NCBI GenBank assembly: GCA_964524845.1
Contig: CAZGFX010000002.1
Span: 227,428-291,427, forward strand
Source: an uncultured Gammaproteobacteria bacterium
Lineage (GTDB): Bacteria; Patescibacteriota; Patescibacteriia; CAZGFX01
Direction: 5' to 3'
DNA: 64,000 bases
The position numbers and the translations under genes are program-made. Below, piece by piece: positions 11,999 to 61,432 of this stretch. Position 1 is the stretch's first letter, and each line of letters begins with the position of its first letter. The notes under the pieces were generated by a model. That model worked only from the letters and a program-made list of their open reading frames with translations. It was not told the DNA's origin and ran no database searches.

Positions 11999-12073
11999 TG
12001 GTGGGTCCAGTGGGGGTCGAACCCACGACCAATAGCTTAAAAGGCTACTGCTCTACCACTGAGCTATAGACCC
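11999..12073 (-). tRNA. tRNA-Lys (anticodon UUU), CCA encoded
   Basis: Reverse complement GGGTCTATAGCTCAGTGGTAGAGCAGTAGCCTTTTAAGCTATTGGTCGTGGGTTCGACCCCCACTGGACCCACCA folds as a cloverleaf. Acceptor GGGTCTA/TGGACCC, anticodon loop CTTTTAA, T-loop TTCGACC. Confidence 0.85.
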
Positions 12074-17549: not shown

Positions 17550-17578
17550 ATGAAAAAAGCACTATTGCAATAGTGCTG
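17550..17578 (-). terminator. rho-independent terminator ending the liv operon
   Basis: Perfect palindrome gcactattgcaatagtgc followed by a U-run on the minus transcript, 30 bp past the livF stop. Confidence 0.55.
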
Positions 17579-17607: not shown

Positions 17608-18327
17608 TTACAACTTTCCAAGGAAAACTCGCTCAAAAATATCTCCGTGCAAAACCTTATCCCCAGGTCCTTCAGTAACAACACGACCCTTGTCTAGAAT
17701 ATATGCCCTATCAACAACAGACAAGAGAGACTTAATATTGTGTTCAACAATCATAATTGCCGTATTGTGTCGTTCGTTTATTTCTTTTATTTTTTCAAAA
17801 ATTTCTTTCACAATCTTCGGAGCAAGACCAAGTGTCGGTTCATCAAGCAAAAGAACTTTCGGATCGCTCATAAGTCCGCGAGCAAGCGCAACCATTTGTT
17901 GTTGTCCTCCCGAAAGCGTTCCTGATGATTGTTTCAGTCTTGATTTTAATATTGGAAACAACTCCATAACTTCTTCAAACTTAATATCCGCGCCTCTTTT
18001 GTCATGAAGTACGAAACCACCTAATTCTATATTTTCTCGAACCGAAAGTGATGGAAAAACCCTTCTCCCCTGCGGTACAAAAGAGATCCCCAAGCGTACC
18101 ATATGATGAGGAATCGGATCAATCTGCTTTTCGTGCCAAAATACTTTTCCTGAATCGATCGGAGCAATTCCAAAAACAGCTTTCAAAATTGTACTTTTCC
18201 CAGCGCCATTAGGACCCATGACAGCAACGATCTCTCCTTCGTCAATAGCAACACTAGCACCATCAAGCGCCTTAACTCCTCCGTAATGTACGGAAATATC
18301 TTTTAGCTGTAATAATGTTTCTTTCAT
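17608..18327 (-). CDS. livF: branched-chain amino acid ABC transporter ATP-binding protein (LivF-type)
   Basis: Walker A GPNGAGKST. ABC signature LSGGQQQ. Walker B LLLDEP. Confidence 0.85.
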   Translation of the reverse strand: MKETLLQLKDISVHYGGVKALDGASVAIDEGEIVAVMGPNGAGKSTILKAVFGIAPIDSGKVFWHEKQIDPIPHHMVRLGISFVPQGRRVFPSLSVRENIELGGFVLHDKRGADIKFEEVMELFPILKSRLKQSSGTLSGGQQQMVALARGLMSDPKVLLLDEPTLGLAPKIVKEIFEKIKEINERHNTAIMIVEHNIKSLLSVVDRAYILDKGRVVTEGPGDKVLHGDIFERVFLGKL

Positions 18328-18389
18328 TTACCCTGTGAAATAAAATTTTTTATTATCGTTCGAACTTGTTTATTGTGTCACCACGAATG

Positions 18390-18606
18390 AATATTATCAT
18401 CATAAGCTTACATTGTCATCCTGAACAATGTCATCCTGAACTAACTTTGTCATCCTGAACTAACTTTGTCATCCTGAACTCGTTTCAGGATCTATGTATC
18501 TGTTTCAGGATCTACCTTGATACATTGTATTTTAGTAAAATTTATTTCTCATATTATCAAAAGTTACACGGTAGATTCTGAAACGAGTTCAGAATGACAG
18601 TGTTGT
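18390..18606. repeat. MITE-like element copy A (repeat family 1)
   Basis: Tandem caatgtcatcctgaa units. Core flanked by TIRs gtcatcctgaactcgtttcag ... ctgaaacgagttcagaatgac. Near-identical core at 26110-26285 and 61231-61432. Confidence 0.6.
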
Positions 18607-18646
18607 ATAATTCGCAATTTGTAATTCGCAATCCGTAATTCAACAC

Positions 18647-19378
18647 CTACTCCCCCAAATATGCCTCGATGACACTTCTTTTCTTAAGCACGTCTTCCGC
18701 TTCACCTTCCGCAAGAAGTTGTCCGCTATCCATCACAATAACATGATCCGAAAGTTCTCTGATAATGTCCATATTATGCTCTATCAGAACGACCGTCTTA
18801 CCATGAGAACGCAATTCCTTGATGACAGTAACTATAATTTTTCTCATTTCCGGAAAAAGACCAGCGAATGGTTCGTCGAGAAGATAAATTTCAGCTTGTA
18901 CAGCAAGCGCTCTCGCGATCTCTAGGAGTTTTCTTTGTCCATAAGACAACTCACGTCCCAGCGCTGTTCTTTTTTCCCAAAGACCAACTTTTTTTAAAAG
19001 TTCCTCTGCACGTCCGAGATGAAACTTGCTGTGTGTTTCAAACAAACTATTAAAAACATTTCTGTCCGTAAGCACCACAAGAAGATTATCGAGCACGGTC
19101 ATTTGTTCGAAAAGTCTCACCTCTTGAAACGTGCGTGTTATTCCATATAAAAATGAATCGTGTGGTTTTATCTTCTTTAAACACGCACTGTCAATACAAA
19201 TCGTACCGCCGTCAAACTGAAGCATACCACTCAGTACGTTTGTAAGAGTTGTTTTTCCTGATCCGTTTGGTCCTATGACGCTTGTTACCTTCCCTTGTTC
19301 TATCTCAATCGAAAGGTCATCTACCGCCCGAATTCCATTGAATCGTTTTGTCAGATTTGCTGTTTTAAGGACGTGCAT
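18647..19378 (-). CDS. livG: branched-chain amino acid ABC transporter ATP-binding protein (LivG-type)
   Basis: Walker A GPNGSGKTT. Signature LSYGQRK. Walker B YLLDEP. Confidence 0.85.
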   Translation of the reverse strand: MHVLKTANLTKRFNGIRAVDDLSIEIEQGKVTSVIGPNGSGKTTLTNVLSGMLQFDGGTICIDSACLKKIKPHDSFLYGITRTFQEVRLFEQMTVLDNLLVVLTDRNVFNSLFETHSKFHLGRAEELLKKVGLWEKRTALGRELSYGQRKLLEIARALAVQAEIYLLDEPFAGLFPEMRKIIVTVIKELRSHGKTVVLIEHNMDIIRELSDHVIVMDSGQLLAEGEAEDVLKKRSVIEAYLGE

Positions 19379-19489
19379 ATGAGTATTGTACTGATTTTAG
19401 GAATTAAAAGCAATGTTTTTGGCTTTGTTCTATATGTTTTATACAAAATAAAAAGACACCATGTAAATTAACACGATGTCTTATTAAAC

Positions 19490-19798
19490 TTATTCTAATA
19501 CGATACCCAAATTATTAGAAAAATGTTCGTTAATATAACCACAAATAGCAATCCAATTTCCCTCCACTTGAACGCAGGTTTTTGTGTTTTTTAAAATAGC
19601 TGTGTTGTTTTCCATAAAAAACACACATCCAGAATATCCATTCCCATAATTCTCAACTGTTTCGGTTTTGTCTCCTGCAAAAGCAAAAAACAAGACTTCA
19701 TCCGGATACGTTTTATCACCATCGTCAACAATCTCTGAATGAGGAATTTTTGTTAAACGTTTTTTTAAACCGTCCAATTTGTAATCCAAGAAAGACAT
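19490..19798 (-). CDS. small hypothetical protein (102 aa) embedded in the liv operon
   Basis: ORF with ATG start. No known motif. Flanked by a repeat element. Confidence 0.35.
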   Translation of the reverse strand: MSFLDYKLDGLKKRLTKIPHSEIVDDGDKTYPDEVLFFAFAGDKTETVENYGNGYSGCVFFMENNTAILKNTKTCVQVEGNWIAICGYINEHFSNNLGIVLE

Positions 19799-19874
19799 AA
19801 AAAACTCCTTTTTTTATTGTGGTTTTAATTATTCATTATATAAACATTTTTCATATCAAGTTACCATACTCAGA

Positions 19875-20150
19875 CACTTTTGTCAATAACCAAAAACCCC
19901 CTGTATAAAACAAGTTTTTCACTAATTTTCCTCGTAATTTCCCCTTCTCGTAATTCGTTCACCCTGTGAAATAAGATTCGAAACAGGCTGAGGTTTTGTT
20001 TATAAATTAATCAAAAATAATTGATTAAACATATATAATAGTAAAAATTAATCCGAATCTTAATTTCAGTATGAAATTATTTCACAGGGTAAATTCGCAA
20101 TCCGTAATTCTTCTCCCTTCTCGTAATTTCCTATCTCGTAATTCTTAATT
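19875..20150. repeat. non-autonomous copy of the TIR element (repeat family 2) with flanking ctcgtaatt-type short tandem repeats
   Basis: TIRs ttcaccctgtgaaataa (19958-19974) and ttatttcacagggtaaa (20077-20093). Upstream ccaaaaacc..tgtataaaacaagttt shared with the 24790 copy. Confidence 0.55.
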
Positions 20151-20154
20151 TATA

Positions 20155-21288
20155 TTATTCTTTATAATCAACAATCTTACCTCCTTTTATTTGTTTTAAC
20201 TGCAAATTAAGTCCTACAACATCTCCGTTTGAATCAAAATGATATGATCCGAGTACTCCATCATAATTTTTGATTCCATACAAATAATCTTTTACTTTAT
20301 CCGTGTTTGTTCCTACCTTCCCTATCGCCTCAGCAAGTAAATATATTTGATCGTACGCTCCGCCAGCGGCAAAAGGATAGGGTGGTTCTGAGTTATATTT
20401 TGATTTATATACTAACATGAAATCATTTGCTTTTGTATTTTTTGGATCAAAGACAGGTGTGTCAACCATAATTGCTCCCTCGGTTGCAGATCCGGATCCG
20501 GTAAATTCTTCTCCGGATAAAAACGCCCCATAAAGTTGTTGTTTCATACCAGCGTCGCGAATTTGTTTAACAATACGAGCGGCCGTTGGACCTGATTGTG
20601 GATTAAAAACAATTGCATCAGGGTTATTCTCCTTAATTTTTACAAGAAGAGATTTAAAATCCGTCGTTCCTGAAACAAATCTCTCTTGTGCTATAATCGT
20701 ACCACCTAATTCTATATAACGGTTTTTAAAAACATTTTCTATCGCGGTTGTATAATCGGTAAGCTCAGTAATAAGAGCTGTTTTTTTGTATTTTTTAATA
20801 ATTGTCTCAGCAAGAAGCTTTCCACTCTCAGCGTCACTTGGCCATGTACGAAAAACGTAATCTGCCATAGATGTAATTTGAGGACTTGACCCCTGCGCCA
20901 TTACAATAACTTTTTCTTTCTCTGTAATAGGAATGGAAGAGATCACTTCTCCACTACACACAAGCCCAATAATAAATTTTGTTTTATCAATAGACACAAG
21001 TTTTTGGGCAGCTATCGTCGCTTCTTTATTATTGCACTTACTGTCTTCATATATCGGTTCGATTCTTTTTCCATTAATGCCTACGCTCGCATTAATTTCA
21101 TCAATTGCAAGTGTAGTCGCATTCTTTATAGACTCTCCAAAAACAGCTGTTTCTCCTGAAAAAGATGCCATCACACCAATTTTTATCGTGTTTGAATCAC
21201 CGGTTTTTTTATCATTCAACACCGCATACCCGCCACCAATGATAACAAGTGCAATAATTATATAAAGAATTGTCTTATTTGATTTCAT
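20155..21288 (-). CDS. LivK-type (type I periplasmic-binding-fold) substrate-binding protein, TM-anchored
   Basis: N-terminal anchor MKSNKTILYIIIALVIIGGGYA. IKIGV...GE...G motifs of the Leu/Ile/Val-binding family. Confidence 0.8.
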   Translation of the reverse strand: MKSNKTILYIIIALVIIGGGYAVLNDKKTGDSNTIKIGVMASFSGETAVFGESIKNATTLAIDEINASVGINGKRIEPIYEDSKCNNKEATIAAQKLVSIDKTKFIIGLVCSGEVISSIPITEKEKVIVMAQGSSPQITSMADYVFRTWPSDAESGKLLAETIIKKYKKTALITELTDYTTAIENVFKNRYIELGGTIIAQERFVSGTTDFKSLLVKIKENNPDAIVFNPQSGPTAARIVKQIRDAGMKQQLYGAFLSGEEFTGSGSATEGAIMVDTPVFDPKNTKANDFMLVYKSKYNSEPPYPFAAGGAYDQIYLLAEAIGKVGTNTDKVKDYLYGIKNYDGVLGSYHFDSNGDVVGLNLQLKQIKGGKIVDYKE

Positions 21289-21299
21289 ATGTATTATGA

Positions 21300-22433
21300 T
21301 TATTGATTTATGTCTTCTAATTTTTTATTATGTATCCTTCTTAATATAAATTCGCGAACAGCATCTCCGTTTTTATCAATACTAATCATACCACTAGAAC
21401 CTTTATAATTTTGAACTGAGTATAAATAATCCTTGATACAATCTGCTTTATAATTATCTTTGCAGTAAACAATACCATCGTATAACACATTATAAACATC
21501 ATAACCCAGTGTAGCAACCATTGTATCTTTTAAAGAAGTTCCGTATTTTTTCTCATAAGAACTAATTAGGTGTTGTGTCTCTGGGCTTTGTGTATCATAT
21601 TTATACATCGTAACGATCATGCCCTCAGCATCAGGATTGTCTGTAACAACACTCATACTAAAAGTTTCGTTTCCTATTATTTGTTTTTTAATTCCGAACT
21701 CTTTGGTCTGTTTGAGAACAATATTTTGTAACGCTGGAGTTAAAAATACATAAACCAAAGCATCTACGTCTTCGTTCTGTAGTTTTAATAATTGGCTTTT
21801 AACATCCGTGTCGGCTGAATTAACACTTTCTGAAACAATTGTATTTCCTGGGGTTTCCTTAAACTTCTTTTCAAAAACATCTTTCCAAGTAACAGAATAT
21901 TCATTCTTTTCGTAAAGAATACCTAGTTTTTTATATGAAAGTTTTTTAATCATTTCAGCAGAAACATCGGCACGTACTTCAGACGAAGCCGTTATACGAA
22001 ATACGTAATCTCCCGCTGTAGTTAAGTTCGGTGTAGCTGCAATTGGTGTAATTAAAATCACACGATTACTCTCTGCCAAAGGAGCAACAGCAAGAGTAGA
22101 GCTACTACACACTCCTGATATAAGAATTTTCACTTTATCAACATCTATAAGTTTTTGAGCGGCTGAAACAGCTTTTTTCGGATCACACATATCATCTTCG
22201 TATAAAACCTTAATTGTTTTACTTCCTATTTTTTGTTTTTCTTCCTCAGCAAGACGCAAAGAATTAACAGATTCTTCATATGCTCCCGCAAGAGGTCCTG
22301 TAAGAGGCCCAAAATATCCTATCTTTATCACATCAGAATTATTATCAGCTTTCTCATTCTTGAGCATCGCATACCCACCACCAATGATAACAAGCGCGAT
22401 AATTATATAAAGAATTGTCTTATTTGATTTCAT
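21300..22433 (-). CDS. LivK-type substrate-binding protein paralog
   Basis: First 22 aa and ~40 bp of upstream DNA identical to the 20155..21288 gene. Type I SBP fold motifs. Confidence 0.8.
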   Translation of the reverse strand: MKSNKTILYIIIALVIIGGGYAMLKNEKADNNSDVIKIGYFGPLTGPLAGAYEESVNSLRLAEEEKQKIGSKTIKVLYEDDMCDPKKAVSAAQKLIDVDKVKILISGVCSSSTLAVAPLAESNRVILITPIAATPNLTTAGDYVFRITASSEVRADVSAEMIKKLSYKKLGILYEKNEYSVTWKDVFEKKFKETPGNTIVSESVNSADTDVKSQLLKLQNEDVDALVYVFLTPALQNIVLKQTKEFGIKKQIIGNETFSMSVVTDNPDAEGMIVTMYKYDTQSPETQHLISSYEKKYGTSLKDTMVATLGYDVYNVLYDGIVYCKDNYKADCIKDYLYSVQNYKGSSGMISIDKNGDAVREFILRRIHNKKLEDINQ

Positions 22434-22444
22434 ATGTATTATGA

Positions 22445-23602
22445 TTATTGATTATTTTCGTATTTTATAATCTTTGAATCCTTAACTGTTTGCATCTCGA
22501 AACTATCTGGCGGCGTATCAACAAATCCATTTTGTTTAAAAGTAATTGATGTTAATGACACGCCCTGATAATTATTCGTTTTAGCAATGGCATCGCGAAG
22601 TATATCATTTCCCGCTAAATTTGTTTTCTCCAAAGCATCAGTAATAATTCCGACGGCATCATACGCGGTAATCGTACTCGGGAAAAGTACGTCCATTCCA
22701 TATTTTTGTTTGAATTTTTCATTAAATTCTATAAATCTTGACGAACGAACCGGAGCACTAAAATAAACATTTTCTAATTGTTTTGGGCATTGTGACAAAG
22801 AAACATCATTACCAGCGGCCTCAGTAGCTAACAGTGGTATCATAAGACCCATATCCTTCATTTGTTGTAATAAAGCGCATTCATTTATATCTCCAACCAC
22901 CATAAACAAAGCATCTGGTTTTGATTGTTTTATTTTCAAAAGATGAGTACGAAAATCCGTCACAAGCGGATTACCAAGATCAATATCCTCAACAATATTA
23001 ACTCCATAACTCGGAGCCCTCTCTACAAAAATATCATGTGTAAACTTCCAAAAACCACCATCAAACACACGCATCAAAGCGATGTTTTTCAAGTTCTTTT
23101 TCTTCGCAAAATCGAGAACGACATCAATACCAACTCTACTGTCATACCATGTTCCAAAAAGATATTCGTATGATTTTTGTGCTTCAACATTATCGGTGGT
23201 ATTGTGACCAATCATAGGAATCCGAGCCGCCTCAATCGCTGGAAGTATTGCTTCTGTGGGTTCGTCCCATTGTGCACCGACAATTGCTTTTACTTTATCG
23301 ACACTGATGAGTTTATTTGCAACAAGTCCGGCGTTTTTTAGCTTATCAATTGACAAGTCCTCTCCAATAAACTCAATTCTTTTTCCTTTTATACCTCCGT
23401 TGATATTAATTTCTTCGACTGCCAGTTCCGCGCCCCTTAACTCCTCAAGTCCCATTGATGCGCCGGCACCAGTCAAAGCAAACACTCCTCCTATTTTTAC
23501 TGTACCACTGTTCTGTCTTGATTGAAACAAAACATATCCTACAAAAACAATAATAATGATAATAACTGCGATTTTAAATATTCTATTACTTTTCATAATC
23601 AT
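22445..23602 (-). CDS. LivK-type substrate-binding protein paralog
   Basis: N-terminal TM anchor. VKIGGVFALTGAGAS...GIKGKRIE motif block. Confidence 0.8.
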   Translation of the reverse strand: MIMKSNRIFKIAVIIIIIVFVGYVLFQSRQNSGTVKIGGVFALTGAGASMGLEELRGAELAVEEININGGIKGKRIEFIGEDLSIDKLKNAGLVANKLISVDKVKAIVGAQWDEPTEAILPAIEAARIPMIGHNTTDNVEAQKSYEYLFGTWYDSRVGIDVVLDFAKKKNLKNIALMRVFDGGFWKFTHDIFVERAPSYGVNIVEDIDLGNPLVTDFRTHLLKIKQSKPDALFMVVGDINECALLQQMKDMGLMIPLLATEAAGNDVSLSQCPKQLENVYFSAPVRSSRFIEFNEKFKQKYGMDVLFPSTITAYDAVGIITDALEKTNLAGNDILRDAIAKTNNYQGVSLTSITFKQNGFVDTPPDSFEMQTVKDSKIIKYENNQ

Positions 23603-23614
23603 AAATTAAAAAGA

Positions 23615-24769
23615 TTATCCGTCATATCTCATGAACTTTCCATCTTTAACTGTCTTGAAGAAAATTTGCTTAATTGCATCACCATTTTCATCAATATCAA
23701 ATGTACCACTTGCACCCTTAAAACCTTTTGTTTCGTATAAACATTGTTTAACTGCATCAACATCATCTCCCTCAGCCTCAACGCATCCACTCAACAAATA
23801 TGCCGCATCATATGCGTTTGCCGCAACTGTGTCTGGTTCTGTGGAAAAACGCTCAACGTACTTAGAATAAAACCTCTTTACCGCCGGTGATTCGTCGTGA
23901 TTATCGTACGAATATGGATATAGAAGTCCTTCGGCATATTTTCCTGCGTTTTTCACTATTTCAGGACCTTCTGTTCCTAGATTATAAAATTGTGCATCAA
24001 TTCCAAGTTCACGCGCTTGTTTAAGAATAAGGCCGATTTGTTTGTTCCCTGCTATTGTAAAAATACTGGTCGGCTTTTGCGCTTTTAACTTTAATAATTC
24101 AGTTTTAAAATCAGTCGCCTTACTATCAAATTTTTCTATACTACCAATTGTTTTACCACTTGATTCAAAAACAGAACGAAACCTGTTTATATACGGATCA
24201 CTAATGGCTGTATTAATGGCAAGAAAATGAATTACACCTCCTTGCATATGCTTCGCCACGAAACGAGCTGATACAGGTGCCTCTTGTGCAACATTATGAA
24301 TAATTCTGAAAACATAATCTCCTGCTTGTGATATCTCATCTGTTTGAGCACTATGAGAAATCATAATTGTTTTTGATTGCTCTGCAATCGGAGCAACCGC
24401 CAACACTTCTGATGAATTATACGGACCAATAATATAATGGATTTTATCTAAATCAATAAACTTACGAACAGCACTTACAGCAACTTGTGGCTCATACCGA
24501 GTGTCTTCATACAGAAAATTAATTTTGTATTTGTTTTTTGTGTTTGAATTAATTTCTTCTTCCGCAATCGAAATTCCATTTTTTGTAAACTCACCAGCAT
24601 CTGCACGAACCCCGGTAAGAGGAGCAGGAATCCCAATTGTGATTGTCTTAGGATAATCTGGATCATGCCTCAACATAATGACATATCCTGTGACAATAAT
24701 AATCGCAATAATAATTATATATACAGTAATACTAGCCTTTTTTATATTCATATCTTGTTCGTTCAACAC
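23615..24769 (-). CDS. LivK-type substrate-binding protein paralog
   Basis: N-terminal TM anchor. ITIGIPAPLTG motif. Type I SBP fold. Confidence 0.8.
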   Translation of the reverse strand: MLNEQDMNIKKASITVYIIIIAIIIVTGYVIMLRHDPDYPKTITIGIPAPLTGVRADAGEFTKNGISIAEEEINSNTKNKYKINFLYEDTRYEPQVAVSAVRKFIDLDKIHYIIGPYNSSEVLAVAPIAEQSKTIMISHSAQTDEISQAGDYVFRIIHNVAQEAPVSARFVAKHMQGGVIHFLAINTAISDPYINRFRSVFESSGKTIGSIEKFDSKATDFKTELLKLKAQKPTSIFTIAGNKQIGLILKQARELGIDAQFYNLGTEGPEIVKNAGKYAEGLLYPYSYDNHDESPAVKRFYSKYVERFSTEPDTVAANAYDAAYLLSGCVEAEGDDVDAVKQCLYETKGFKGASGTFDIDENGDAIKQIFFKTVKDGKFMRYDG

Positions 24770-24789
24770 TCATATTTTATTACTTTTAA

Positions 24790-25180
24790 GCCAAAAAGCA
24801 ACTACCAAAAAACCTTGTATAAAACAAGTTTCCACTAATCCTTCTCGTAATTTTCCCTTCTCGTAATTCGTTCACCCTGTGAAATAAGATTTGAGCCTTC
24901 TTTTAATAAACATCTTACCATAAAAAGTCTTTAAATACTTTTCTCTTCGTGTGGCATCCTGTTGATTAAGACAAACCTCAAAATAAATAAGTTTTAAAGG
25001 TCTTCTCTCTTTTGTTGATGGTATTAACCCTTTATTATGTCGCTCAAATCTTAACTTCAAATTTTTTGTATACCCAGTATACATCTTATTATCTTTTTTA
25101 CTCTTTAATACATATGTATAAAACATATAATAATTGTTTTATATAAAAAATTTGGAGTTATTTCACAGGGTAAATTTATA
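24790..25180. mobile_element. TIR-bounded element carrying a GIY-YIG nuclease gene (repeat family 2, putative autonomous copy)
   Basis: Inverted repeats ttcaccctgtgaaataa (24871-24887) and ttatttcacagggtaaa (25158-25174) bracket the GIY-YIG ORF. Same TIRs and flank occur without the ORF at 19875-20150. Solo TIRs at 18328, 26043 and 56985. Confidence 0.5.
24872..25126 (-). CDS. GIY-YIG nuclease family protein (YhbQ/UPF0213-like, 84 aa)
   Basis: MFYTYVLKSKKDNKMYTGYTKNLKLRFERHNKG matches the GIY-x10-YIG...R...E..H core. Conserved downstream E in LIYFE. Confidence 0.8.
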   Translation of the reverse strand: MFYTYVLKSKKDNKMYTGYTKNLKLRFERHNKGLIPSTKERRPLKLIYFEVCLNQQDATRREKYLKTFYGKMFIKRRLKSYFTG

Positions 25181-26042
25181 ATTTATATTCTCCTTTAAGT
25201 CCTTGTGGGCGATATATCATAAGAAAAACAAGAAGTGCTCCATATACCACCTGTCGCATCTGTGCCGCTATATCGGTTGGAAATCCAACAAAACGCATAA
25301 TTTCCGGTAACAAAATAAGAAACAAGGCACCAAGAAGCGATCCTTCTAAATTAGCAAGACCGCCTAAAATAATTATCGCTAATATAAAAATAGATTCCGG
25401 AAGCGCGAATGTCGACGGATCAATAAATGTAATATAAGAAGCAAAAAGAGCTCCGGCAATTGCGGCCATACCCGCCGATATCATAAAAATAACAAGTTTA
25501 TACTGCAGTGTGTTATATCCGAAAACTTGTAACGCTTTTTCGTCATCACGAATAGCTTTGAGAGCGCGTCCAAACGATGACTTGGTAACATATCGCGCAC
25601 ATATATATACAATGATCATGAATAACGCACTTAAAACAAGAAACGTCAGATTATCACGAAAAACAAATCCGAATATCTCCGGTCTTCCTATTCCTGGAAT
25701 ACCGAGCGGGCCTCGAGTAAGATCCTGCCAGTTCAATAAAATACTAAACACAATAACATTGAAACCAAACGATGCAAGAGCATAATAATCTGATTCAAAT
25801 TTGCTCATAACGAATCCAATTAGAAAGCTCACCGCCATCGAGAGAATGATACTGAATATAACAGCAACAAAAAAATTAACACCGAGCTCAGTCATCAGAA
25901 TTGCCGATGCATACGCACCAACACCATAAAAAGCCGCGTGCGTTACTGACAAAAGCCCTGTATATCCTACGACCAAATTCAAACTTATACCAAGTATGGC
26001 ATATATTGTGAAAAGTATCGCTAAATGTATTAAATATTCCAT
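25176..26042 (-). CDS. livM: branched-chain amino acid ABC transporter permease (LivM-type)
   Basis: 8-10 TM helices. Permease family motifs (GLLSVTHAAFYGVGAY). Confidence 0.8.
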   Translation of the reverse strand: MEYLIHLAILFTIYAILGISLNLVVGYTGLLSVTHAAFYGVGAYASAILMTELGVNFFVAVIFSIILSMAVSFLIGFVMSKFESDYYALASFGFNVIVFSILLNWQDLTRGPLGIPGIGRPEIFGFVFRDNLTFLVLSALFMIIVYICARYVTKSSFGRALKAIRDDEKALQVFGYNTLQYKLVIFMISAGMAAIAGALFASYITFIDPSTFALPESIFILAIIILGGLANLEGSLLGALFLILLPEIMRFVGFPTDIAAQMRQVVYGALLVFLMIYRPQGLKGEYKL

Positions 26043-26109
26043 TTACCCTGTGAAATAAGGTTTTTTTAATTCGTAATTCAAACTTTTTTATTGTACTACA
26101 TTAAAAGAA

Positions 26110-26285
26110 CATTATCATCTTAGATTGACCTTGTCATGTTGAACATTGTCATCCTGAACTGACCCTGTCATCCTGAACTCGTTTCAGGATCTACCTTGAT
26201 ACAATGTTTTCTAGGAAAACTTATAACACATATTATCAAAAGTTACACGGCAGATGCTGAAACGAGTTCAGCATGACATTGTGGC
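26110..26285. repeat. MITE-like element copy B (repeat family 1), followed by cgtaattc short tandem repeats to 26343
   Basis: Same TIRs and core as 18390-18606. Occupies the livH-livM intergenic spacer. Confidence 0.6.
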
Positions 26286-26343
26286 GTAATTCGTAATTAT
26301 TCTTCCCTCTCGTAATTTTCCCTTCTCGTAATTCGTAATTGTA

Positions 26344-27258
26344 TTACTTCTTTTTAAATATTCCCGATGGTCTGAAGAGAAGGAAAACGATAAGCACCCC
26401 AAATGCAATAGCGTCTTTCCACTCGCCGGATATCTTCCAAATACCGAAGTTCTCTATAAATCCGAGAAGCATCGCTCCAGCAAAACCTCCGTATGTATTT
26501 CCAACACCTCCGATAATTGCCGCGATGACACCCTTGAGAAGCAGTGCCATACCCATCGTAGGTTCAAGTCCCGTGTCAAACCCAACAAGTGCACCAGCAA
26601 GTCCGGCAATGGCCGAACCGATAATAAATACAATCGATATTATTTTATTGACATTGATACCAACCACTTTCGAAACCTCCTGATCATCGCTTACAGCACG
26701 AATAGCATATCCGATTTTTGTCTTTTTCAAGAAAATTACAAGTCCTCCCATAATCAACGCCGCGCACACCAACATGATCAATTGTATTTCTGTAATAACA
26801 CCTCCAAAAATAGTATATACTTTATTTTCTGTAAGTGATGTCGAGAGTGTCTGAAATTGACTTGTAAACAAAATCGCTATGATCGCCTGAATTGCCGTAA
26901 AAGCACCGAGAGATGCGACAAGATACACCATGAGAGACGCTTTTCGCGAACGAAGTTGTCTATATATGGACACCTCAAGTCCCCATCCGATCATGGCGGC
27001 AAGAACAACACCAAGAATGACGCTTGGAATGATACCAATCTCCGTATTTTTAATGAAAAACAATGCGGTATAACCACCAACAGCAGCCAGCACCCCGTGT
27101 GCCAGATTAAAAAACTTGGTCGTATTGTACGTCAAATTAAAACCAAGAGCCACGAGCGCATAAATCGCGCCGGCAATAATACTATTGACTGTAAGTTGAA
27201 TGACTATATCCACATGGCTTATTATAGCGAAAATACGAAATAAATCAAAAACACCCAA
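26344..27258 (-). CDS. livH: branched-chain amino acid ABC transporter permease (LivH-type)
   Basis: 304 aa, 8 TM. LivH-like motif GFNLTYNTTKFFNLAHG. Confidence 0.8.
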   Translation of the reverse strand: MGVFDLFRIFAIISHVDIVIQLTVNSIIAGAIYALVALGFNLTYNTTKFFNLAHGVLAAVGGYTALFFIKNTEIGIIPSVILGVVLAAMIGWGLEVSIYRQLRSRKASLMVYLVASLGAFTAIQAIIAILFTSQFQTLSTSLTENKVYTIFGGVITEIQLIMLVCAALIMGGLVIFLKKTKIGYAIRAVSDDQEVSKVVGINVNKIISIVFIIGSAIAGLAGALVGFDTGLEPTMGMALLLKGVIAAIIGGVGNTYGGFAGAMLLGFIENFGIWKISGEWKDAIAFGVLIVFLLFRPSGIFKKK

Positions 27259-27290
27259 TTAATGTTCGAGTGTTTTTTGATTATAATAAT

Positions 27291-28391
27291 TTATTTTACA
27301 GGGATCTGCTTTCCGTTTTTAATTTCATAAACACTTGCACGAGATATTACAATTCCGTCCTTATCAACAGAAAGAGGTCCTAAAACTCCTTCAAAATTCG
27401 TAATTTCTTGAAGTGCTTTTGCTATTTCACCAGTTGACGGATAATGATCTTTTCCGACTTTTTCTGTAGAATAGACAAACAAATTAAATACATCATATGT
27501 ATTCGGTGCACCAGGAGTAACTTCCTTATTAAATTCAGAATTAAATTTATTTCTAAATTCATCTGTTGCATTTGCGGCATCAACATACCAACATCCTTCA
27601 ATTAACTCTTTTTGATTTGAAAAAGAAAAAGCCTCAATAGACGTCAGTGGAGTTGTAATTCCAAGATCTTTTATTTGTTTAGTAATTATTTCCAGTTCTG
27701 GAGAAAAAGCAAGAATATATATAATATCAGGATTTTTCTGTTGTATTCTAGTAATTATCGTTTTAAAATCTTTTTCTCCACTGTTATACCATTCGCTTTG
27801 AACGATAGATATATCAGTATCTTTCAAATGTTCTCTGATTTCGTCATCGATGGCTTTCGCTCCTTGTTGATTCAATGCAATTGTTGCAATCTTTTTTATG
27901 CCTCTTTTTTTAAATTCTTCTACAACAAGTTTTGCTTCTTCTGATGGAGGTGTCCAATGCATAAAATTATATTCTCCTTTTGCTATATTTGCATCAGACG
28001 CAATACCAAAATGCACCACTTTATTCGTCTCAGCAACTGGTGTAACAACATTTCCACTTCCTGAAGTAAATGATATAACAGCGCTTACCTTATCAATATT
28101 TATTAACTTATTAACAGCGCTTGCTGTCATTTTTGGATTAAGTTGATCATCTTCATAAACAACATCATATTTATATTTTGTTGTCTTTTTGTCTTTCATA
28201 GCAAGTGTTAAAGAATTTTTAACACCTTCACCAAGATGTGCCATATCACCGGTCAATGGAAGAATTACTCCTATCTTTATCGTCTCCTGTTTATCGTTTT
28301 GTGATGTCTTGTTTGTTGTAATAGTATATACCGCTCCTACAACAACCAAAACAGCTACCACCCAGACTAGAATTTTGTTTTGTTTCGACAT
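27291..28391 (-). CDS. LivK-type substrate-binding protein paralog
   Basis: N-terminus MSKQNKILVWVVAVLVVVGAVYTITTNKTSQNDKQETIKIGVI identical to the 30808..31944 gene. Type I SBP motifs. Confidence 0.8.
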   Translation of the reverse strand: MSKQNKILVWVVAVLVVVGAVYTITTNKTSQNDKQETIKIGVILPLTGDMAHLGEGVKNSLTLAMKDKKTTKYKYDVVYEDDQLNPKMTASAVNKLINIDKVSAVISFTSGSGNVVTPVAETNKVVHFGIASDANIAKGEYNFMHWTPPSEEAKLVVEEFKKRGIKKIATIALNQQGAKAIDDEIREHLKDTDISIVQSEWYNSGEKDFKTIITRIQQKNPDIIYILAFSPELEIITKQIKDLGITTPLTSIEAFSFSNQKELIEGCWYVDAANATDEFRNKFNSEFNKEVTPGAPNTYDVFNLFVYSTEKVGKDHYPSTGEIAKALQEITNFEGVLGPLSVDKDGIVISRASVYEIKNGKQIPVK

Positions 28392-28412
28392 ATAAAAGAA
28401 TTATTATCGATT

Positions 28413-29561
28413 TTATTTATAAATTTCCGGTATTCCATTTCGAATAATTTTAACAACATGCCCTCCAATACGATCACCATCCGCACCTATTTCTACAAGA
28501 CCAGAAGCGCCTTTCCAGTCTTTGACAGATCTGAACCATGCAGCAATTTTAGAAGTGTCAGTACCGACCGCCTTAATAGCGTCACGAATCATATATACAG
28601 CGTCATATTCCGTCTGTCCGTAACTCTGATATGGCATCTCTTTTCCAAATTGTTTTTGATATTCATTAATAAAATTTTTAAATATAGAATTAGTAGGATC
28701 GACACCAAATTCAGCTGCAAAAGCTCCTTCAAGAGCACTTTTATTACGTTGAACCATCTCATTTGCACCTGACACAGCGTCAGACACAATAAGAGATGGC
28801 TTCCAACCTAAATCGGCCATTTGTTTAAAAATGCGATCAGCTGCGGCCGGAGTTTGTGGAACAACGAATAATGCATCTGGGTTCTCATTGCGCAACTTAG
28901 TAAGAATAGTCTTAAAATCAGTAACAGTCGAAGGGAATTCTTCTTTTACTACTGTTCCGCCAAGTTCAGAAAATTTATTATTGAAAGCATTGTATATACC
29001 AAGAGCATAGTCGGTTTGTTCCTGAATAAATGCTATCTTCTTCCATTGTTTATTTGTGTATGCTAATTGAGCAAGTGTTGATCCTTGTGTCGCATCACTT
29101 GGATAATTTCGAACAAAATAATCACTTATTCCGGTCAGTGCTGGACTACTTGACCCAGCAGAAATCATAAATACTTTATTTTCCAGAGCAATTGGAACAG
29201 CGGATAGCGATTCACTACTGCAAAATCCCCCAATAATAATTTTTACTTTATCAACAGTAATAAGTTTTGACGCGGCGTTTGCACCATCTTTGCCACTACA
29301 CTTACCGTCTTCTACTATGAGGTTTATTTTCTTTCCGTTAATACCTCCTGATGCATTAATCTCGTTAACTGCCATTTGATATATATTACGAGCCGGTTCA
29401 CCATAAAAAGCCGCGTCTCCTGACAATGGCACTATTACTCCTATCTTTATCGTCTCCTGTTTATCATTTTGTGATGTCTTGTTTGTTATGATTGTGTACA
29501 CAGCACCTACAATCACAATTATCGCCACAATCCATACTAAAACATTATTTCGTTTACTCAT
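28413..29561 (-). CDS. LivK-type substrate-binding protein paralog
   Basis: Near-identical N-terminal 45 aa to the neighbouring paralogs. SBP fold. Confidence 0.8.
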   Translation of the reverse strand: MSKRNNVLVWIVAIIVIVGAVYTIITNKTSQNDKQETIKIGVIVPLSGDAAFYGEPARNIYQMAVNEINASGGINGKKINLIVEDGKCSGKDGANAASKLITVDKVKIIIGGFCSSESLSAVPIALENKVFMISAGSSSPALTGISDYFVRNYPSDATQGSTLAQLAYTNKQWKKIAFIQEQTDYALGIYNAFNNKFSELGGTVVKEEFPSTVTDFKTILTKLRNENPDALFVVPQTPAAADRIFKQMADLGWKPSLIVSDAVSGANEMVQRNKSALEGAFAAEFGVDPTNSIFKNFINEYQKQFGKEMPYQSYGQTEYDAVYMIRDAIKAVGTDTSKIAAWFRSVKDWKGASGLVEIGADGDRIGGHVVKIIRNGIPEIYK

Positions 29562-29675
29562 AGATTAATTAATTATACCTAAATATTACTCTCTATCTCT
29601 GTCGAAAATCAAGTTTTTATCAACAAAAAAAACGTTAAAAAACCAGGCTTATTACAATTAAAATAAGTTATTAAT

Positions 29676-30779
29676 TTATGGTTTTTTTTCAAGCAATACT
29701 TGCTTTCCGTCTCTTATCTCATATACATCAGCCTTTGAAACAACTATCCCATCTGTATCTATCGTGAGAGATCCCATAGCTCCAGAAAAATCTTTGATTA
29801 TATGAAGATTTTTTATTATCTCATCCGCGGTTGGACGATTGTTTGTTTTTACGTTCTCAATCGCATACACAAGTAATTTTATTATATCGTATGAATTTGG
29901 CGCACCTTGAGTGATTGTTGTTTTGTATGTATTTTCATATAATTGTTTGAATTGTAGTGACGGATCTCCAGCATCAACATACCAACTTCCTTCAAGTAAT
30001 TCTTTGTTCTTTGCCCATGAAAACGCTTCAATCGAAGTAAGTGGTGTGGTAATTCCTAAATCTTTAATTTGTTTTATAACAAGCTCGAGTTCTGGAGAAA
30101 AAGCCTTAATAGATATTATATCTGGATTTCCTTTTTGTGCTTTAAGAATAACCGTTTTAAAATCAGTATCTCCTTTCATAATCAACTCATCTCCGACTAT
30201 TTCAATATCAGTTTTTTTAAGATATTCGTTTGCCGCAGAATGAGTTGCCAACGCGCCCTGTTGATTTAAAGTAATTGAAGATATTTTCTTTATTTCTCTT
30301 TTTTTCAACTCTTCTACAAATAATTTTGCTTTTTCAGCAGGGGGTGTCCAATGAATAAAATTATATTCTCCTTTGGCAATATTCGCATCATTTGCAATGC
30401 CGAAATGAATAATTTTATTCGTCTCAGCTATCGGAGCAATAACATTTCCACTTCCTGAAGTAAACGATATAACCGCATCAACCTTATCTATATTGATAAG
30501 CTTATTGATTGCTGAGGCGGTTTTTTTTGGATCAAGCTGGTCATCCTCAAATATGAGTTCATATTTATAATGTGTGTTTTTTATTGAATCATAAGCCAAA
30601 AGAACACCATTTCGAACACCTTCTCCAAGCGAAGCCATGTTCCCACTCAAAGGAGCGATAACTCCTATTTTAATTATATTATTATTTTCTAAATCTTTTT
30701 TTGTCGCGACAATATAAATTCCACCAACAAAAAATAGACATATCACGATCCATATGATAATTTTATTTTCTTTTGACAT
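29676..30779 (-). CDS. LivK-type substrate-binding protein paralog
   Basis: N-terminal TM anchor. IKIGVIAPLSGNMASLGEG motif. Confidence 0.8.
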   Translation of the reverse strand: MSKENKIIIWIVICLFFVGGIYIVATKKDLENNNIIKIGVIAPLSGNMASLGEGVRNGVLLAYDSIKNTHYKYELIFEDDQLDPKKTASAINKLINIDKVDAVISFTSGSGNVIAPIAETNKIIHFGIANDANIAKGEYNFIHWTPPAEKAKLFVEELKKREIKKISSITLNQQGALATHSAANEYLKKTDIEIVGDELIMKGDTDFKTVILKAQKGNPDIISIKAFSPELELVIKQIKDLGITTPLTSIEAFSWAKNKELLEGSWYVDAGDPSLQFKQLYENTYKTTITQGAPNSYDIIKLLVYAIENVKTNNRPTADEIIKNLHIIKDFSGAMGSLTIDTDGIVVSKADVYEIRDGKQVLLEKKP

Positions 30780-30807
30780 AAAAAATATTATTAATATCGA
30801 TTATTTT

Positions 30808-31944
30808 TTATTCATTTAATTTAATAAACGTTCCGTTTTCTAATTTCATTAATTGAACATCTCTTCTTGCTTCTCCGTTTTCATCGAAATCTATTTTTCC
30901 TCCCGCACCAACGTAATTGTGTGTTTCATATAAAACATTTTTTATTTTTTCTGTATTATAACCGACTTTTTTTACAATATTTATAATAATTTTAAAAGCA
31001 TCATAACCATTTATAGAATAAATTCCTGCGTTTTCGCCATATCTTAATTTATATATATTATTGAAATCTGTGTAAAAAGGGTTATTTTCATCTATTCCTT
31101 CATTAGCAATAATTGTTCCTTCGCTTGAATTTTTAGCTTGTTTATATAAATCATCTGATTTTAAAGAAGATATGCCAAACCACGTCGGCTTCAGTCCTAA
31201 CTCAATGGATCTATTAAAAAAAGTTGCGGCTTGTTCAACAAGCAAAACAGTAAACACTGCGTCTGGGTTTTTTTCTTTTAAACTTAATGCTTTTGTTCTT
31301 AGGTCCATATCTCCTATTTGCAATAAATCACGTGCGATCAACTGTACTCCCATTGCAGAAAGCCTTTCTTCAAACGCATTAATATATGGTAAACCCGCTT
31401 CGTTATTCATTGCAATTGCAGCCACTCTTTTATAACCCTTTTTTTGTATATAATCAGCGATCGCATTTGCCTCGAAAGTCCCATTAACTCGATTTCTAAA
31501 AATAAAATCACCAGCATTGGTAATAGAAGGACTTGATGCAAGTGAAACAAAAAGAAGAACCTTGTTTTCATTTGCAATAGGTGCCATCGCCATAACAGAA
31601 CTACTCCCTGTTCCTGTAATAATTACTTTTACTCTATCAACCGATATTAGCTTTTGAAGTGCGCTAACAGAAGTTTTTGGATCACTTTTTCCATCTTCTA
31701 TTAATATTTGTATATTTTTTCTTACGCCATTTGATTTGTTCTCATTTTCAAAAGCTATTTCAATTCCATTTTTTACCCACCCTCCATATAATGACATTGG
31801 TCCTGTCAAATCTGCTATAACACCAATTTTTATAGTCTCTTGTTTATCGTTTTGTGATGTCTTGTTTGTTGTGATAGTATATACCGCTCCCACAACAACC
31901 AAAACAGCTACCACCCAGACTAGAATTTTGTTTTGTTTGGACAT
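30808..31944 (-). CDS. LivK-type substrate-binding protein paralog
   Basis: 5' ~130 nt identical to the 27291..28391 gene. SBP fold. Confidence 0.8.
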   Translation of the reverse strand: MSKQNKILVWVVAVLVVVGAVYTITTNKTSQNDKQETIKIGVIADLTGPMSLYGGWVKNGIEIAFENENKSNGVRKNIQILIEDGKSDPKTSVSALQKLISVDRVKVIITGTGSSSVMAMAPIANENKVLLFVSLASSPSITNAGDFIFRNRVNGTFEANAIADYIQKKGYKRVAAIAMNNEAGLPYINAFEERLSAMGVQLIARDLLQIGDMDLRTKALSLKEKNPDAVFTVLLVEQAATFFNRSIELGLKPTWFGISSLKSDDLYKQAKNSSEGTIIANEGIDENNPFYTDFNNIYKLRYGENAGIYSINGYDAFKIIINIVKKVGYNTEKIKNVLYETHNYVGAGGKIDFDENGEARRDVQLMKLENGTFIKLNE

Positions 31945-32036
31945 AAAAATAATTATTTATTCTGTACTTATAATACTCCTTATTTTAAGGAAATTTCAAG
32001 GAAACACGAACACATATAATTATCTACTCGATACTT

Positions 32037-33035
32037 TTATTCAATCTCGATCGCCTTCCCATTCTCAATCTTTTTTAACCGAATAGGTCTTTTCATTACT
32101 CCATTCTCATCAAATTTACCTGATGAAACAATCGTGTCGCGAACACAGTCATATTTTCCACTGCATTTTTTTACAACTTCTCCCATAATCTCGGCCGCTT
32201 CTTTTGAAATATGAAAAATTCCACCATCGCCTGTATTTGGTAGATCGGCCGGAAAAGAATAAATTACACCCTCCACAAAATCACGCATCGCTGGAAGTTC
32301 GGTGGTGTATTGAGAGTATATCGGCGCAGCCACACCGAGCCTCCTCAACTTATTAATTCCATCAGCAAAGAAAAAAGCAGCATCAGCCACAAATATCGCA
32401 TCAGGCTGCGCCGCACGAATTTTGAGAAGTTCAGAAGAAACATCAGCACCATTATCTGCAAACCAAGACTCGTGCGCAATTTCTCCGGAATAATTTTTTC
32501 TGAAAGAATCCGCATGTGTCCTAGAAAAAGCATTCTCATAAGCGACTAGCGCGACACGCTTCATCCCTAGTTCGAACATCTTACGCGCCAAGAAACTTGA
32601 TTCATCTTCGAGAGAATAATGCATATTAAACATATTTCCTCCGCTTGATGAGAAAAGATTTTTAGACGCGGCGGAAGGCACTATACTCAAAATCTTTTTG
32701 TCTTTCAGAAGCGTTGCGACAACTTCTTGTGGCGACCCGCATGCAGGACCAATAACAAAAGAAACATTATCGAAATCAACGAGTTTTCTAAATGCGCTTA
32801 TTGCGGTTTTTGGTTCGCACTTTTCGTCTTCGAACACAAACTCCACACCATCAAATGAAACAGAAGACACTCCTCGACGAATCTCTTCCCCATACTTTGC
32901 AAAAACATCACTAAGAGGAGCTATTACTCCAATTTTCATATTTCCGTCTGTGTGAGTCGTATTATAAACAAAAAATCCTGCTACAATAAAGAGGCATAAG
33001 ACAACAAACAATATTAATTTTCCTAAAGTTGTCAT
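32037..33035 (-). CDS. LivK-type substrate-binding protein paralog (first gene of liv operon)
   Basis: Track ORF starts at a TTG (33068). First ATG gives MTTLGKLILFVVLCLFIVAGFF as TM anchor. MKIGVIAPLS motif. Confidence 0.75.
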   Translation of the reverse strand: MTTLGKLILFVVLCLFIVAGFFVYNTTHTDGNMKIGVIAPLSDVFAKYGEEIRRGVSSVSFDGVEFVFEDEKCEPKTAISAFRKLVDFDNVSFVIGPACGSPQEVVATLLKDKKILSIVPSAASKNLFSSSGGNMFNMHYSLEDESSFLARKMFELGMKRVALVAYENAFSRTHADSFRKNYSGEIAHESWFADNGADVSSELLKIRAAQPDAIFVADAAFFFADGINKLRRLGVAAPIYSQYTTELPAMRDFVEGVIYSFPADLPNTGDGGIFHISKEAAEIMGEVVKKCSGKYDCVRDTIVSSGKFDENGVMKRPIRLKKIENGKAIEIE

Positions 33036-33043
33036 AAATATAT

Positions 33044-33078
33044 AAAAAAGCAAAAAACCGCCGACCAAGGGCGACGGA
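33044..33078 (-). terminator. putative terminator after rplU
   Basis: GC-rich imperfect hairpin ccgccgacc..gggcgacgg followed by UUUUUUGCUUUUUU on the minus transcript. Confidence 0.35.
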
Positions 33079-56710: not shown

Positions 56711-56812
56711 GTGGATGAGACCTCTCCCTGACATGCGTCAGGGCAAGCATATTCGTTCGAGGTGACAAAGTTGGTCGAGGTGACAAGTCCCGCCGAGCGT
56801 CAGCGATGACGG
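56711..56812. repeat. GC-rich palindromic repeat unit (family 3), copy 2
   Basis: ggatgagacctctccctgacatgcgtcagggcaagc...tcgaggtgacaa, shared with 33481-33620. Confidence 0.5.
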
Positions 56813-56820
56813 GATATTAA

Positions 56821-56984
56821 CAATGTCATCCTGAACAATGTCATCCTGAATAATGCCATCCTGAACAATGTCATCCTGAACAATGTCATCCTGAACAATG
56901 TCATCCTGAATTTATTTCAGGATCTATGTATCTGTTTCAGGATCTGTGTATCTATTTCAGGATCTGTGTATCTGTTTCAGGATG
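56821..56984. repeat. tandem arrays of 6 x 15 bp (caatgtcatcctgaa) then 3.5 x 20 bp (tttcaggatctgtgtatctg); arms mutually complementary
   Basis: Direct reading. Units are the same motifs that form the family-1 MITE termini. Followed by a solo family-2 TIR at 56985-57005. Confidence 0.7.
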
Positions 56985-57529
56985 AAATTATTTCACAGGG
57001 TAAATTCATAATTTTTCTAAAATCAAAAACCCCGTAGCAAAAAATAACTAGATAAATATGCTACGGGGTTCAACCTATACCTATATACACGTCTGAGATA
57101 CGTATTACTATCTATACGAATAAGCTTTTGGATGAGGATTTGGGATTCGATCAGTTAGCCTCCATCTTTTTATGTGTACAAAATCTTTTCGACATTGGAA
57201 GTTTTCGGATCTTATGAAATAAGTTCTCGGACCTCCTTATGTGCCTAAAAACGATTTTGTAACGTGCCTATATATCGCCCGCATAGGAAGTTTAGTACAC
57301 GAACGAAACAATGGCATAAGTAAATATTGCTTGAAAAGTAACCACGGATTCCAAATGCACTCATCCACTATAGGTTTACGCCCACTTACAAAAAATTACA
57401 AATGAGAAAATCACCGTTTTGTACCCTGTTATGCACTTCTTATTTTTCCGCTAAAATAACATCTTTTAAAACAAGTTTATAATCATTATTTAACGAATAA
57501 AAAAAACAAACAGGAGAATTTAGTAGGGT

Positions 57530-61230: not shown

Positions 61231-61432
61231 ATGTCATCCTGAACCATGTCATCCTGAATTTATTTCAGGATCTATATATCTGTTTCAGAATCTTCCTTGA
61301 TACATTGTGTATTATGTCATTCTGAACTTGTTTCAGAATCTTCCTTGATACATTGTTTTCTAGGAAAACTTATATTTCATATTATTAAAAGTTACACTGC
61401 AGATGCTGAAACGAGTTCGGCATAACGCAATG
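61231..61432. repeat. MITE-like element copy C (repeat family 1, with internal 40-bp duplication)
   Basis: Same termini and core as 18390-18606 and 26110-26285. Confidence 0.6.

Follow-up and report, generated by a model that had tools for sequence, protein, structure and literature searches.

How do receptor genes that have clearly diverged from one another come to share near-identical starts? The question is raised by a liv-type ATP-binding cassette (ABC) transporter cluster at positions 17608-33035 of a 64,000-nucleotide (nt) stretch of contig CAZGFX010000002.1 (hereafter the window, meaning the whole stretch analysed), in which one pair of permease genes and one pair of ATPase genes are accompanied by nine genes for substrate-binding proteins, here called A to I. 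The locus is most probably a HAAT-family (liv-type) ABC importer of a Paceibacteria-class bacterium of the candidate phyla radiation (CPR). Taken as a whole, our reading, in which we have good confidence, is that of an old multi-receptor importer whose receptor genes undergo gene conversion confined to the membrane anchor.

Nine intact open reading frames (ORFs) of 332-385 amino acids (aa) match PF13458 (Peripla_BP_6) over nearly the full model length with E-values of 1e-25 to 1e-59. The original prediction, made from the letters of the sequence, had described nine LivK-type genes in blocks of five and four with one livH/livM and one livG/livF pair, and the Pfam matches bear this out. The cluster genes are all encoded on the minus strand, in transcriptional order A-B-C-D-E, livH, livM, a GIY-YIG ORF, F-G-H-I, orf102, livG, livF. 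Within the 64-kb window there is one livH/livM plus one livG/livF translocator set for the nine receptor genes, and no further liv components or binding-protein genes were found there. The mature domains of the nine proteins share 21-40% aa identity, with the exception of C and E (59%), so the divergence that had been claimed for them is real; the positions lining the N-lobe pocket also differ between paralogues. A recent tandem amplification with whole-gene near-identity is ruled out by the nucleotide identity of the mature domains, which is 38-53% (67% for C and E).

In every one of the nine N-termini a polar linker comes after a hydrophobic stretch at least 18 residues long. On these grounds, and since the lipobox cysteine of lipoproteins is missing from all of them, we infer uncleaved N-terminal signal-anchors. 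It is in this region that the gene starts coincide. B (30808-31944, 378 aa) and E (27291-28391, 366 aa) have the same first 43 aa, and their DNA is near-identical (97%) over nt 1-102 of the coding sequence only. The core of this tract runs from 31849 to 31944 in B and from 28296 to 28391 in E, within a wider 142-nt alignment of 92% identity (31817-31957 in B, 28264-28405 in E). Codons 1-34 contain three synonymous differences, whereas codons 35-43, which encode the same amino acids, contain seven. D (28413-29561, 382 aa) differs from B and E in 21 of its first 25 codons and matches E over nt ~76-128 only (29434-29512 in D, 28264-28342 in E; 79 nt, 90% identity). The claim that B, D and E share their first 40-45 codons therefore stands for the peptide of B and E, but neither for D nor for the DNA of B and E beyond codon 34. 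The upstream DNA said to be shared by the three genes amounts to a partly similar stretch of ~13 nt in B and E, with nothing common to B, D and E. In the second group, H (21300-22433) and I (20155-21288) have the same first 22 residues and identical DNA from -20 to +66, within a tract of 89 nt at 95.5% identity (22365-22453 in H, 21220-21308 in I). The shared start and upstream identity predicted for this pair were confirmed, yet the common spacer is shorter than the ~30 bp proposed, as 11 of the 20 upstream nt are spacer and the other 9 are the end (N-Q-stop) of the gene before.

Using a column-permutation test on the codon alignment, we found the clustering of identity to be significant for B-E, B-D and D-E (p<0.0005 each) and for H-I (p=0.002). 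At sites where B and D differ, E is B-like in 25 of 26 cases up to nt 96 and D-like in 10 of 10 beyond (Fisher p=4e-8). E is thus a three-way mosaic, B-like over nt 1-96, D-like over nt 97-135 and C-like in the remainder, which calls for at least two separate exchanges. The same incongruence is seen between the parts of the protein, the mature domain of E being sister to that of C, its nearest paralogue (59% aa), while its anchor equals that of B. The tracts have sharp borders, are homogenised at synonymous sites, form mosaics and are more alike within the genome than between orthologues. On the strength of the mosaic breakpoints, the synonymous-site identity and the phylogenetic incongruence, the common 5' ends are to be read as gene conversion. 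The gene conversion proposed originally is upheld by the permutation test, the mosaic of E and the synonymous-site pattern together.

We then set the locus against its relatives, using the 80 loci best matched by livM plus the window (81 loci, 287 binding-protein genes). All 80 come from CPR/Patescibacteria metagenome-assembled genomes (MAGs) of Paceibacteria type, labelled Paceibacterota, Taylorbacteria, Parcubacteria, Nomurabacteria and similar, and the livM product of the window is at most 75% identical to that of any species-representative genome (Paceibacteria MAGs). Thirty-nine relatives are fully covered over ±10 kb around livM; in 21 of them the liv locus contains five or more binding-protein genes, in 6 it contains nine or more, and the largest number is 12. 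The usual order in the relatives is S..S-livH-livM-S..S-livG-S..S-livF, where S is a binding-protein gene. The multi-receptor architecture is the rule in this clade. Across the set, 743 within-locus paralogue pairs yielded 70 DNA matches, 44 of which fall in the first 150 nt (binomial p=1e-21); for matches of at least 85% identity the figure is 29 of 42 (p=2e-16). Long tracts beginning at or just before the start codon occur in ~11 genomes, including L060 (97% over 129 nt), L063, L067, L006, L029, L051 and L018. Anchor peptides at least 60% identical make up 2.5% of the within-genome pairs versus 0.05% of the between-genome pairs. The anchor is the part that changes fastest between genomes, yet in some pairs the part most similar within a genome, which is the signature of concerted evolution.

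It is possible, though we consider it unlikely, that the shared starts mark events of domestication rather than neutral homogenisation, with acquired foreign genes receiving a resident signal-anchor for export and tethering. The case for this is B. At a threshold of at least 42% identity the 287 binding proteins fall into 84 orthogroups, seven of which hold the nine window proteins, with B and H as singletons in the 81-locus set. None of the 80 Paceibacteria loci contains an orthologue of B, whose best match there is 33%; the orthologues in a large protein database (P0002-P0019) are 40-51% identical to it. These nearest relatives are mostly non-CPR proteins with lipoprotein signal peptides (...LLTAC, ...LLTGC, ...FIGC), and their similarity to B starts exactly at KIG(L/V)IADLTGPM, where the shared N-terminus ends. 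In three contigs of non-CPR bacteria the B-orthogroup gene lies in a conserved cluster (L081, 3736-10866; L083, 3763-11289; L085, 4994-12361), as the single binding-protein gene beside those for a ~480-510-aa protein of no assigned family, a radical-SAM enzyme of ~465-480 aa, two liv-type permeases and two ATPases. This points to a dedicated importer with a link to a radical-SAM pathway. The same contigs bear genes of outer-membrane type, one of the records being named Bacteroidetes. B may have been acquired and then re-fitted with a resident anchor.

The wider evidence is less favourable to such grafting. Part of the B orthogroup is already anchored by a transmembrane (TM) helix (P0015, P0016, P0018 and P0019), and rare or foreign orthogroups are not enriched among the anchor-sharing genes of the 81 loci, where 5 of 21 are singletons versus 45 of 266 for the others; together these observations make grafting onto acquired genes an anecdote and not a rule. 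H, the other gene without an orthologue in the 80 loci, is matched in the large protein database by ordinary CPR-type orthologues at 40-50% identity. The base composition of B is also unremarkable, its GC content at third codon positions being 0.21 against 0.19-0.28 in its neighbours. Used as a lone query, the shared 43-aa anchor had no match in either protein library. A more far-reaching idea, which we regard as speculative and rather improbable, is that in Paceibacteria the signal-anchor is a portable module, such that recombination at gene starts re-fits receptors, including an acquired B, and keeps short islands of homology available for the gain, loss and reshuffling of whole receptor cassettes in the one liv locus. 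If this were true, the receptor array would be an evolvable "plug-in" system for nutrient scavenging.

Gene conversion between old genes has also to be weighed against the idea that a tandem duplication took place recently and that the ligand domain then diverged very fast, leaving the 5' end as a remnant of the original identity. We hold this to be very improbable, even though the genes are in tandem and of the same family and C and E (59% aa, 67% nt) look like a lineage-specific duplicate. The tract partners (B/E, D/E, H/I) have mature domains merely 33-36% identical, yet for each of them closer orthologues exist in other genomes (D, 50-60% in many genomes; E, 47-53%; I, 46-47%; B, at most 51%; H, at most 50%), so that the genes are far older than the tracts that they share. 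Put differently, the split between partners predates the divergence of these genomes, whereas the tract DNA is 95-97% identical. Nor can a single duplication yield the three-way mosaic of E. The remaining receptors have orthologues at similar distances (A, 46-52% in 8 genomes; F, 56-59%; G, 46-50% in 9 genomes), and those of C and E in other genomes are within the 45-60% range. As the best match lies within the same locus for only 4 of the 287 binding proteins, and within-locus paralogue identity has a median of 27% with no pair reaching 60% in the 81 loci, the paralogues must be old. By these identities the nine genes are old paralogues and not a recent amplification, with C/E evidently the only lineage-specific duplicate among them. 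Seven of the nine belong to separate orthogroups that other genomes share. The "ongoing duplication" once proposed for this array consequently finds no support, most mature domains being closer to orthologues elsewhere. The binding-protein orthologues (45-60%) are more diverged than the livM permease (64-75%).

Purifying selection on the anchor peptide (for export or docking) or on the 5' end of the mRNA might in principle keep the starts identical in the place of recombination, and the unchanged peptide of B and E up to codon 43 despite DNA differences does argue for some selection on the linker and its IKIGVI motif. As a cause of the shared starts, however, we think this very unlikely. Synonymous sites are identical in the tracts and scrambled just outside them with the peptide unchanged, a pattern that selection on the protein cannot have produced. 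Moreover, A, C, F and G have markedly different anchors within the same cell, and between orthologous Paceibacteria binding proteins the anchor is the most diverged part, orthologues of 65-90% overall identity having anchors merely 18-58% identical. An Rfam scan matched no RNA family in the cluster, the sole match in the window being a tRNA at 12002-12073. The low anchor identities between orthologues also speak against the notion that conversion serves to "keep" the membrane anchor. Since the anchor is nearly free of constraint there is nothing to preserve, and conversion at this place is probably tolerated rather than favoured by selection. One orthologous pair, L008_3049 and L047_7852, is 83% identical overall and 31% in the anchor. 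That the gene starts are chimeras of metagenome reads joined or collapsed at short repeats is extremely unlikely even for what appears to be a MAG-type contig (a protein identical to B lies on an NCBI contig of 309,728 bp), because the tracts are short (50-130 nt), imperfect, in frame and mosaic with three partners, the nine ORFs are all intact, the same pattern recurs in the independent assemblies L006 (OZ246403.1, a record labelled chromosome), L060, L063, L029, L067 and L018, and an assembler may misorder repeats but does not generate similarity.

The old multi-receptor importer with anchor-confined conversion would work as follows. One LivH-LivM channel with its LivG/LivF ATPases would be fed by nine binding proteins, each tethered by an uncleaved N-terminal TM helix and a short polar linker. 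Each receptor would most likely recognise a different small molecule, which would broaden the uptake by a single importer. Short non-reciprocal patches of ~50-130 nt, beginning shortly before the start codon and reaching into the anchor and linker, would repeatedly have copied gene starts between neighbouring paralogues. Such patches would survive at the anchor since its sequence is almost unconstrained, while exchange within the ligand-binding domain would be blocked by missing homology or purged by selection. Anchor replacement may have accompanied the acquisition of B, whose family is mostly lipoprotein in other phyla.

As to the ligands, the solved relatives of the binding proteins are LivJ/LivK-type structures (3td9, 4gnr, and the LivK/LivJ structures 1usg and 1z15). 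In the alignment to LivK, N-lobe pocket positions 18, 77-79, 100-102 and 150 differ in almost every paralogue, with C and E in agreement, and Ser79 is kept in 7 of the 9 proteins. The C-lobe pocket positions 202, 226 and 276 were discarded, the alignment to LivK being unreliable there. The long-term retention of separate orthogroups argues for distinct functions. Among the NCBIfam models, Liv and Urt rank on top with every score far below the curated cutoff (LivH, 121 versus 379; UrtB, 129 versus 250). As all equivalog cutoffs are missed, the locus is a member of the HAAT family but not a LivHMGF or UrtBCDE equivalog, and the substrate cannot be transferred from these systems. Ligand screening in the HAAT family has likewise shown the label "branched-chain amino acid" to be a poor guide to the ligand (PMC3223731).

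Several points weigh against the reading as given. The docking of all nine receptors on one translocator is suggested by their co-location, and further liv permeases could exist outside the 64-kb window. The differences in ligand are read from an alignment of 25-30% identity that is reliable in the N-lobe only. Donor and recipient of each patch are not assignable, the nearest homologues of B and H being ~50% identical. Finally, the signals within the cluster suggest several transcription units rather than one operon.

Both the multi-receptor ABC importer and segmental gene conversion are of already known kinds. In E. coli more than one receptor uses the one Liv translocator, and this LivJ/LivK-LivHMGF system (HAAT, TC 3.A.1.4) resembles the present locus in its two BPD_transp_2 permeases, two ATPases and Peripla_BP_6 receptors. 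It differs in having two receptors, not nine, and these are soluble and periplasmic, whereas those described here are tethered by a TM helix, are encoded by genes interleaved between the permease and ATPase genes, and belong to a locus in which all NCBIfam Liv/Urt scores are under cutoff. One translocator recruiting several binding proteins is reportedly also the theme of "Homes for the orphans" (Thomas, 2010). In Borrelia burgdorferi, five OppA substrate-binding proteins serve one ABC-type Opp transporter (PMC6719511). This, too, is a small-genome, nutrient-dependent bacterium with several receptors for one translocator, although Opp belongs to an oligopeptide ABC family and its receptors are lipoproteins, partly plasmid-borne and differentially regulated. 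We know of no homogenisation of 5' ends in the OppA genes of Borrelia. In Rhodopseudomonas palustris the ligands of many COG0683 proteins are instead other amino acids, aromatic acids, fatty acids or dicarboxylates (PMC3223731). The receptors there are scattered over a large generalist genome, whereas here up to a dozen are packed in one liv locus of a reduced genome.

For the conversion, the closest parallel is reportedly found in the bab/sab outer-membrane protein genes of Helicobacter pylori, which are said to undergo segmental gene conversion and concerted evolution of paralogues; gene conversion in bacterial paralogues in general is said to be reviewed by Santoyo and Romero (2005). The likeness lies in short homogenised end segments in diverged paralogues, in mosaic breakpoints, and in paralogues that are more alike within a genome than orthologues are. 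In the present case, however, the segment is the signal-anchor of transporter receptors in a single cluster, recurring in many genomes of one clade, and there is no link to surface variation. A literature search, with subscription journals outside its coverage, turned up no account of CPR bacteria with multi-receptor liv loci or of binding proteins with signal-anchor conversion. Three features appear to be new, namely how large and regular the Paceibacteria receptor arrays are, the TM tethering of the receptors and the clade-wide confinement of conversion to the signal-anchor.

The genomes of CPR bacteria are tiny, and these organisms are believed to live at the expense of other cells; a practical question is how they obtain many building blocks with few transporters. 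The locus and its relatives suggest one answer, namely a single liv-type importer with up to a dozen old, distinct, tethered receptors. The scavenging by an auxotroph that was originally suggested fits this general knowledge of CPR bacteria, and the ligands of the receptors would show which nutrients these uncultured organisms require. The exchange of anchors is, in addition, a clean natural example of segmental concerted evolution in an unconstrained module. It also calls for caution, as trees or clusters built from the N-terminal regions of these binding proteins would mislead both annotation and phylogeny.

The other genes of the cluster are as follows, all matching the families given above unless stated. 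A (32037-33035; 332 aa from the ATG at 33035, PF13458 E=1e-25) is the first gene after a terminator-like hairpin at 33058-33077, itself 3' of rplU. C (29676-30779, 367 aa) lies between B and D, and F (23615-24751) and G (22445-23596) precede H. The livH-type permease gene occupies 26344-27258 (PF02653, E=2e-42) and the livM-type gene 25176-26042 (288 aa; PF02653, E=2e-47). Both ATPase genes match PF00005, with LivG and UrtD as the best NCBIfam models for the livG-type gene (18647-19378) and UrtE/LivF for the livF-type gene (17608-18327). The 102-aa orf102 (19490-19798) has an AGGAG site 5' of its start and no match in Pfam or NCBIfam.

The cluster, first described as an operon, is not a single clean one, being interrupted by the GIY-YIG ORF, the 102-aa ORF, repeat elements and terminator-like hairpins. 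Such hairpins lie at 33058-33077 (after rplU), 27247-27277 (between E and livH), 19453-19482 (between orf102 and livG; 12 pairs, just upstream of livG) and 17558-17577 (after livF). The stem-loop at 27247-27277 on the minus strand has 12 pairs, is AT-rich and is followed by T-rich sequence. It overlaps the TTG listed as the start of livH, whose real start therefore probably lies some codons further on. This junction of receptor and translocator genes is a place at which transcription is often attenuated in ABC operons, so that receptors outnumber the translocator. Promoter-like motifs, which are consensus matches only, were found in the A/B and C/D spacers and near the 3' ends of two ~300-nt repeat elements.

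Members of a repeat family, all listed here on the minus strand, occupy four spacers of the cluster. A blastx search of the long spacers found no remnants of binding-protein genes; they hold these repeat elements instead. The two ~300-nt elements lie in the livH/livM spacer (26043-26343) and the livG/livF spacer (18328-18646), and the copies are homologous, with 78-86% identity. Both end in the right repeat TTATTTCACAGGGTAA, which abuts the ATG of livM and of livF, and in both the promoter-like motif faces the downstream gene. They contain AATTACG units, the hairpins GTCAT(G/T)CTGAACTCGTTTCAG(C/A)ATC and GATCCTGAAACGAGTTCAGGATGACA, and GTTCAGGATGACA repeats.

The third member (24869-25176) looks like a compact mobile unit. 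It contains the 84-aa GIY-YIG ORF (24872-25126; PF01541, E=2e-16), flanked by the 18-nt inverted repeats ATTTACCCTGTGAAATAA and TTATTTCACAGGGTGA. The left repeat begins directly after the livM stop codon, and the right repeat encodes the C-terminus of the ORF (...YFTG*). The 18-nt repeat has at least 120 exact matches in metagenome contigs, many of which form 40-nt-spaced hairpins. Five matches are accompanied by a homologous GIY-YIG ORF of ~84-90 aa, and in four of the five an inverted copy of the repeat lies 259-289 nt upstream; related ~300-bp GIY-YIG units with the same ends are present in unrelated metagenome contigs (L100, L108, L134, L150 and L157). A 34-nt exact pattern had no match in the metagenomes, and the repeat motif was not found in the liv loci of the 80 relatives. 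The literature search, again with subscription journals outside its coverage, did not find the GIY-YIG mini-element described. The fourth member is an ORF-less 140-bp unit (19956-20095, within the I/orf102 spacer at 19799-20154), which shares with the GIY-YIG element both the inverted repeats and the flanking AATTACGAGAAGGG repeats. Members of the family also occur elsewhere in the window, at 56800-57020 and 61247-61340, where the left inverted repeat is followed by tandem GATCCTGAAACAGATACA(C/T)A arrays and then by opposed TTCAGGATGACATTG units, forming a long imperfect palindrome.

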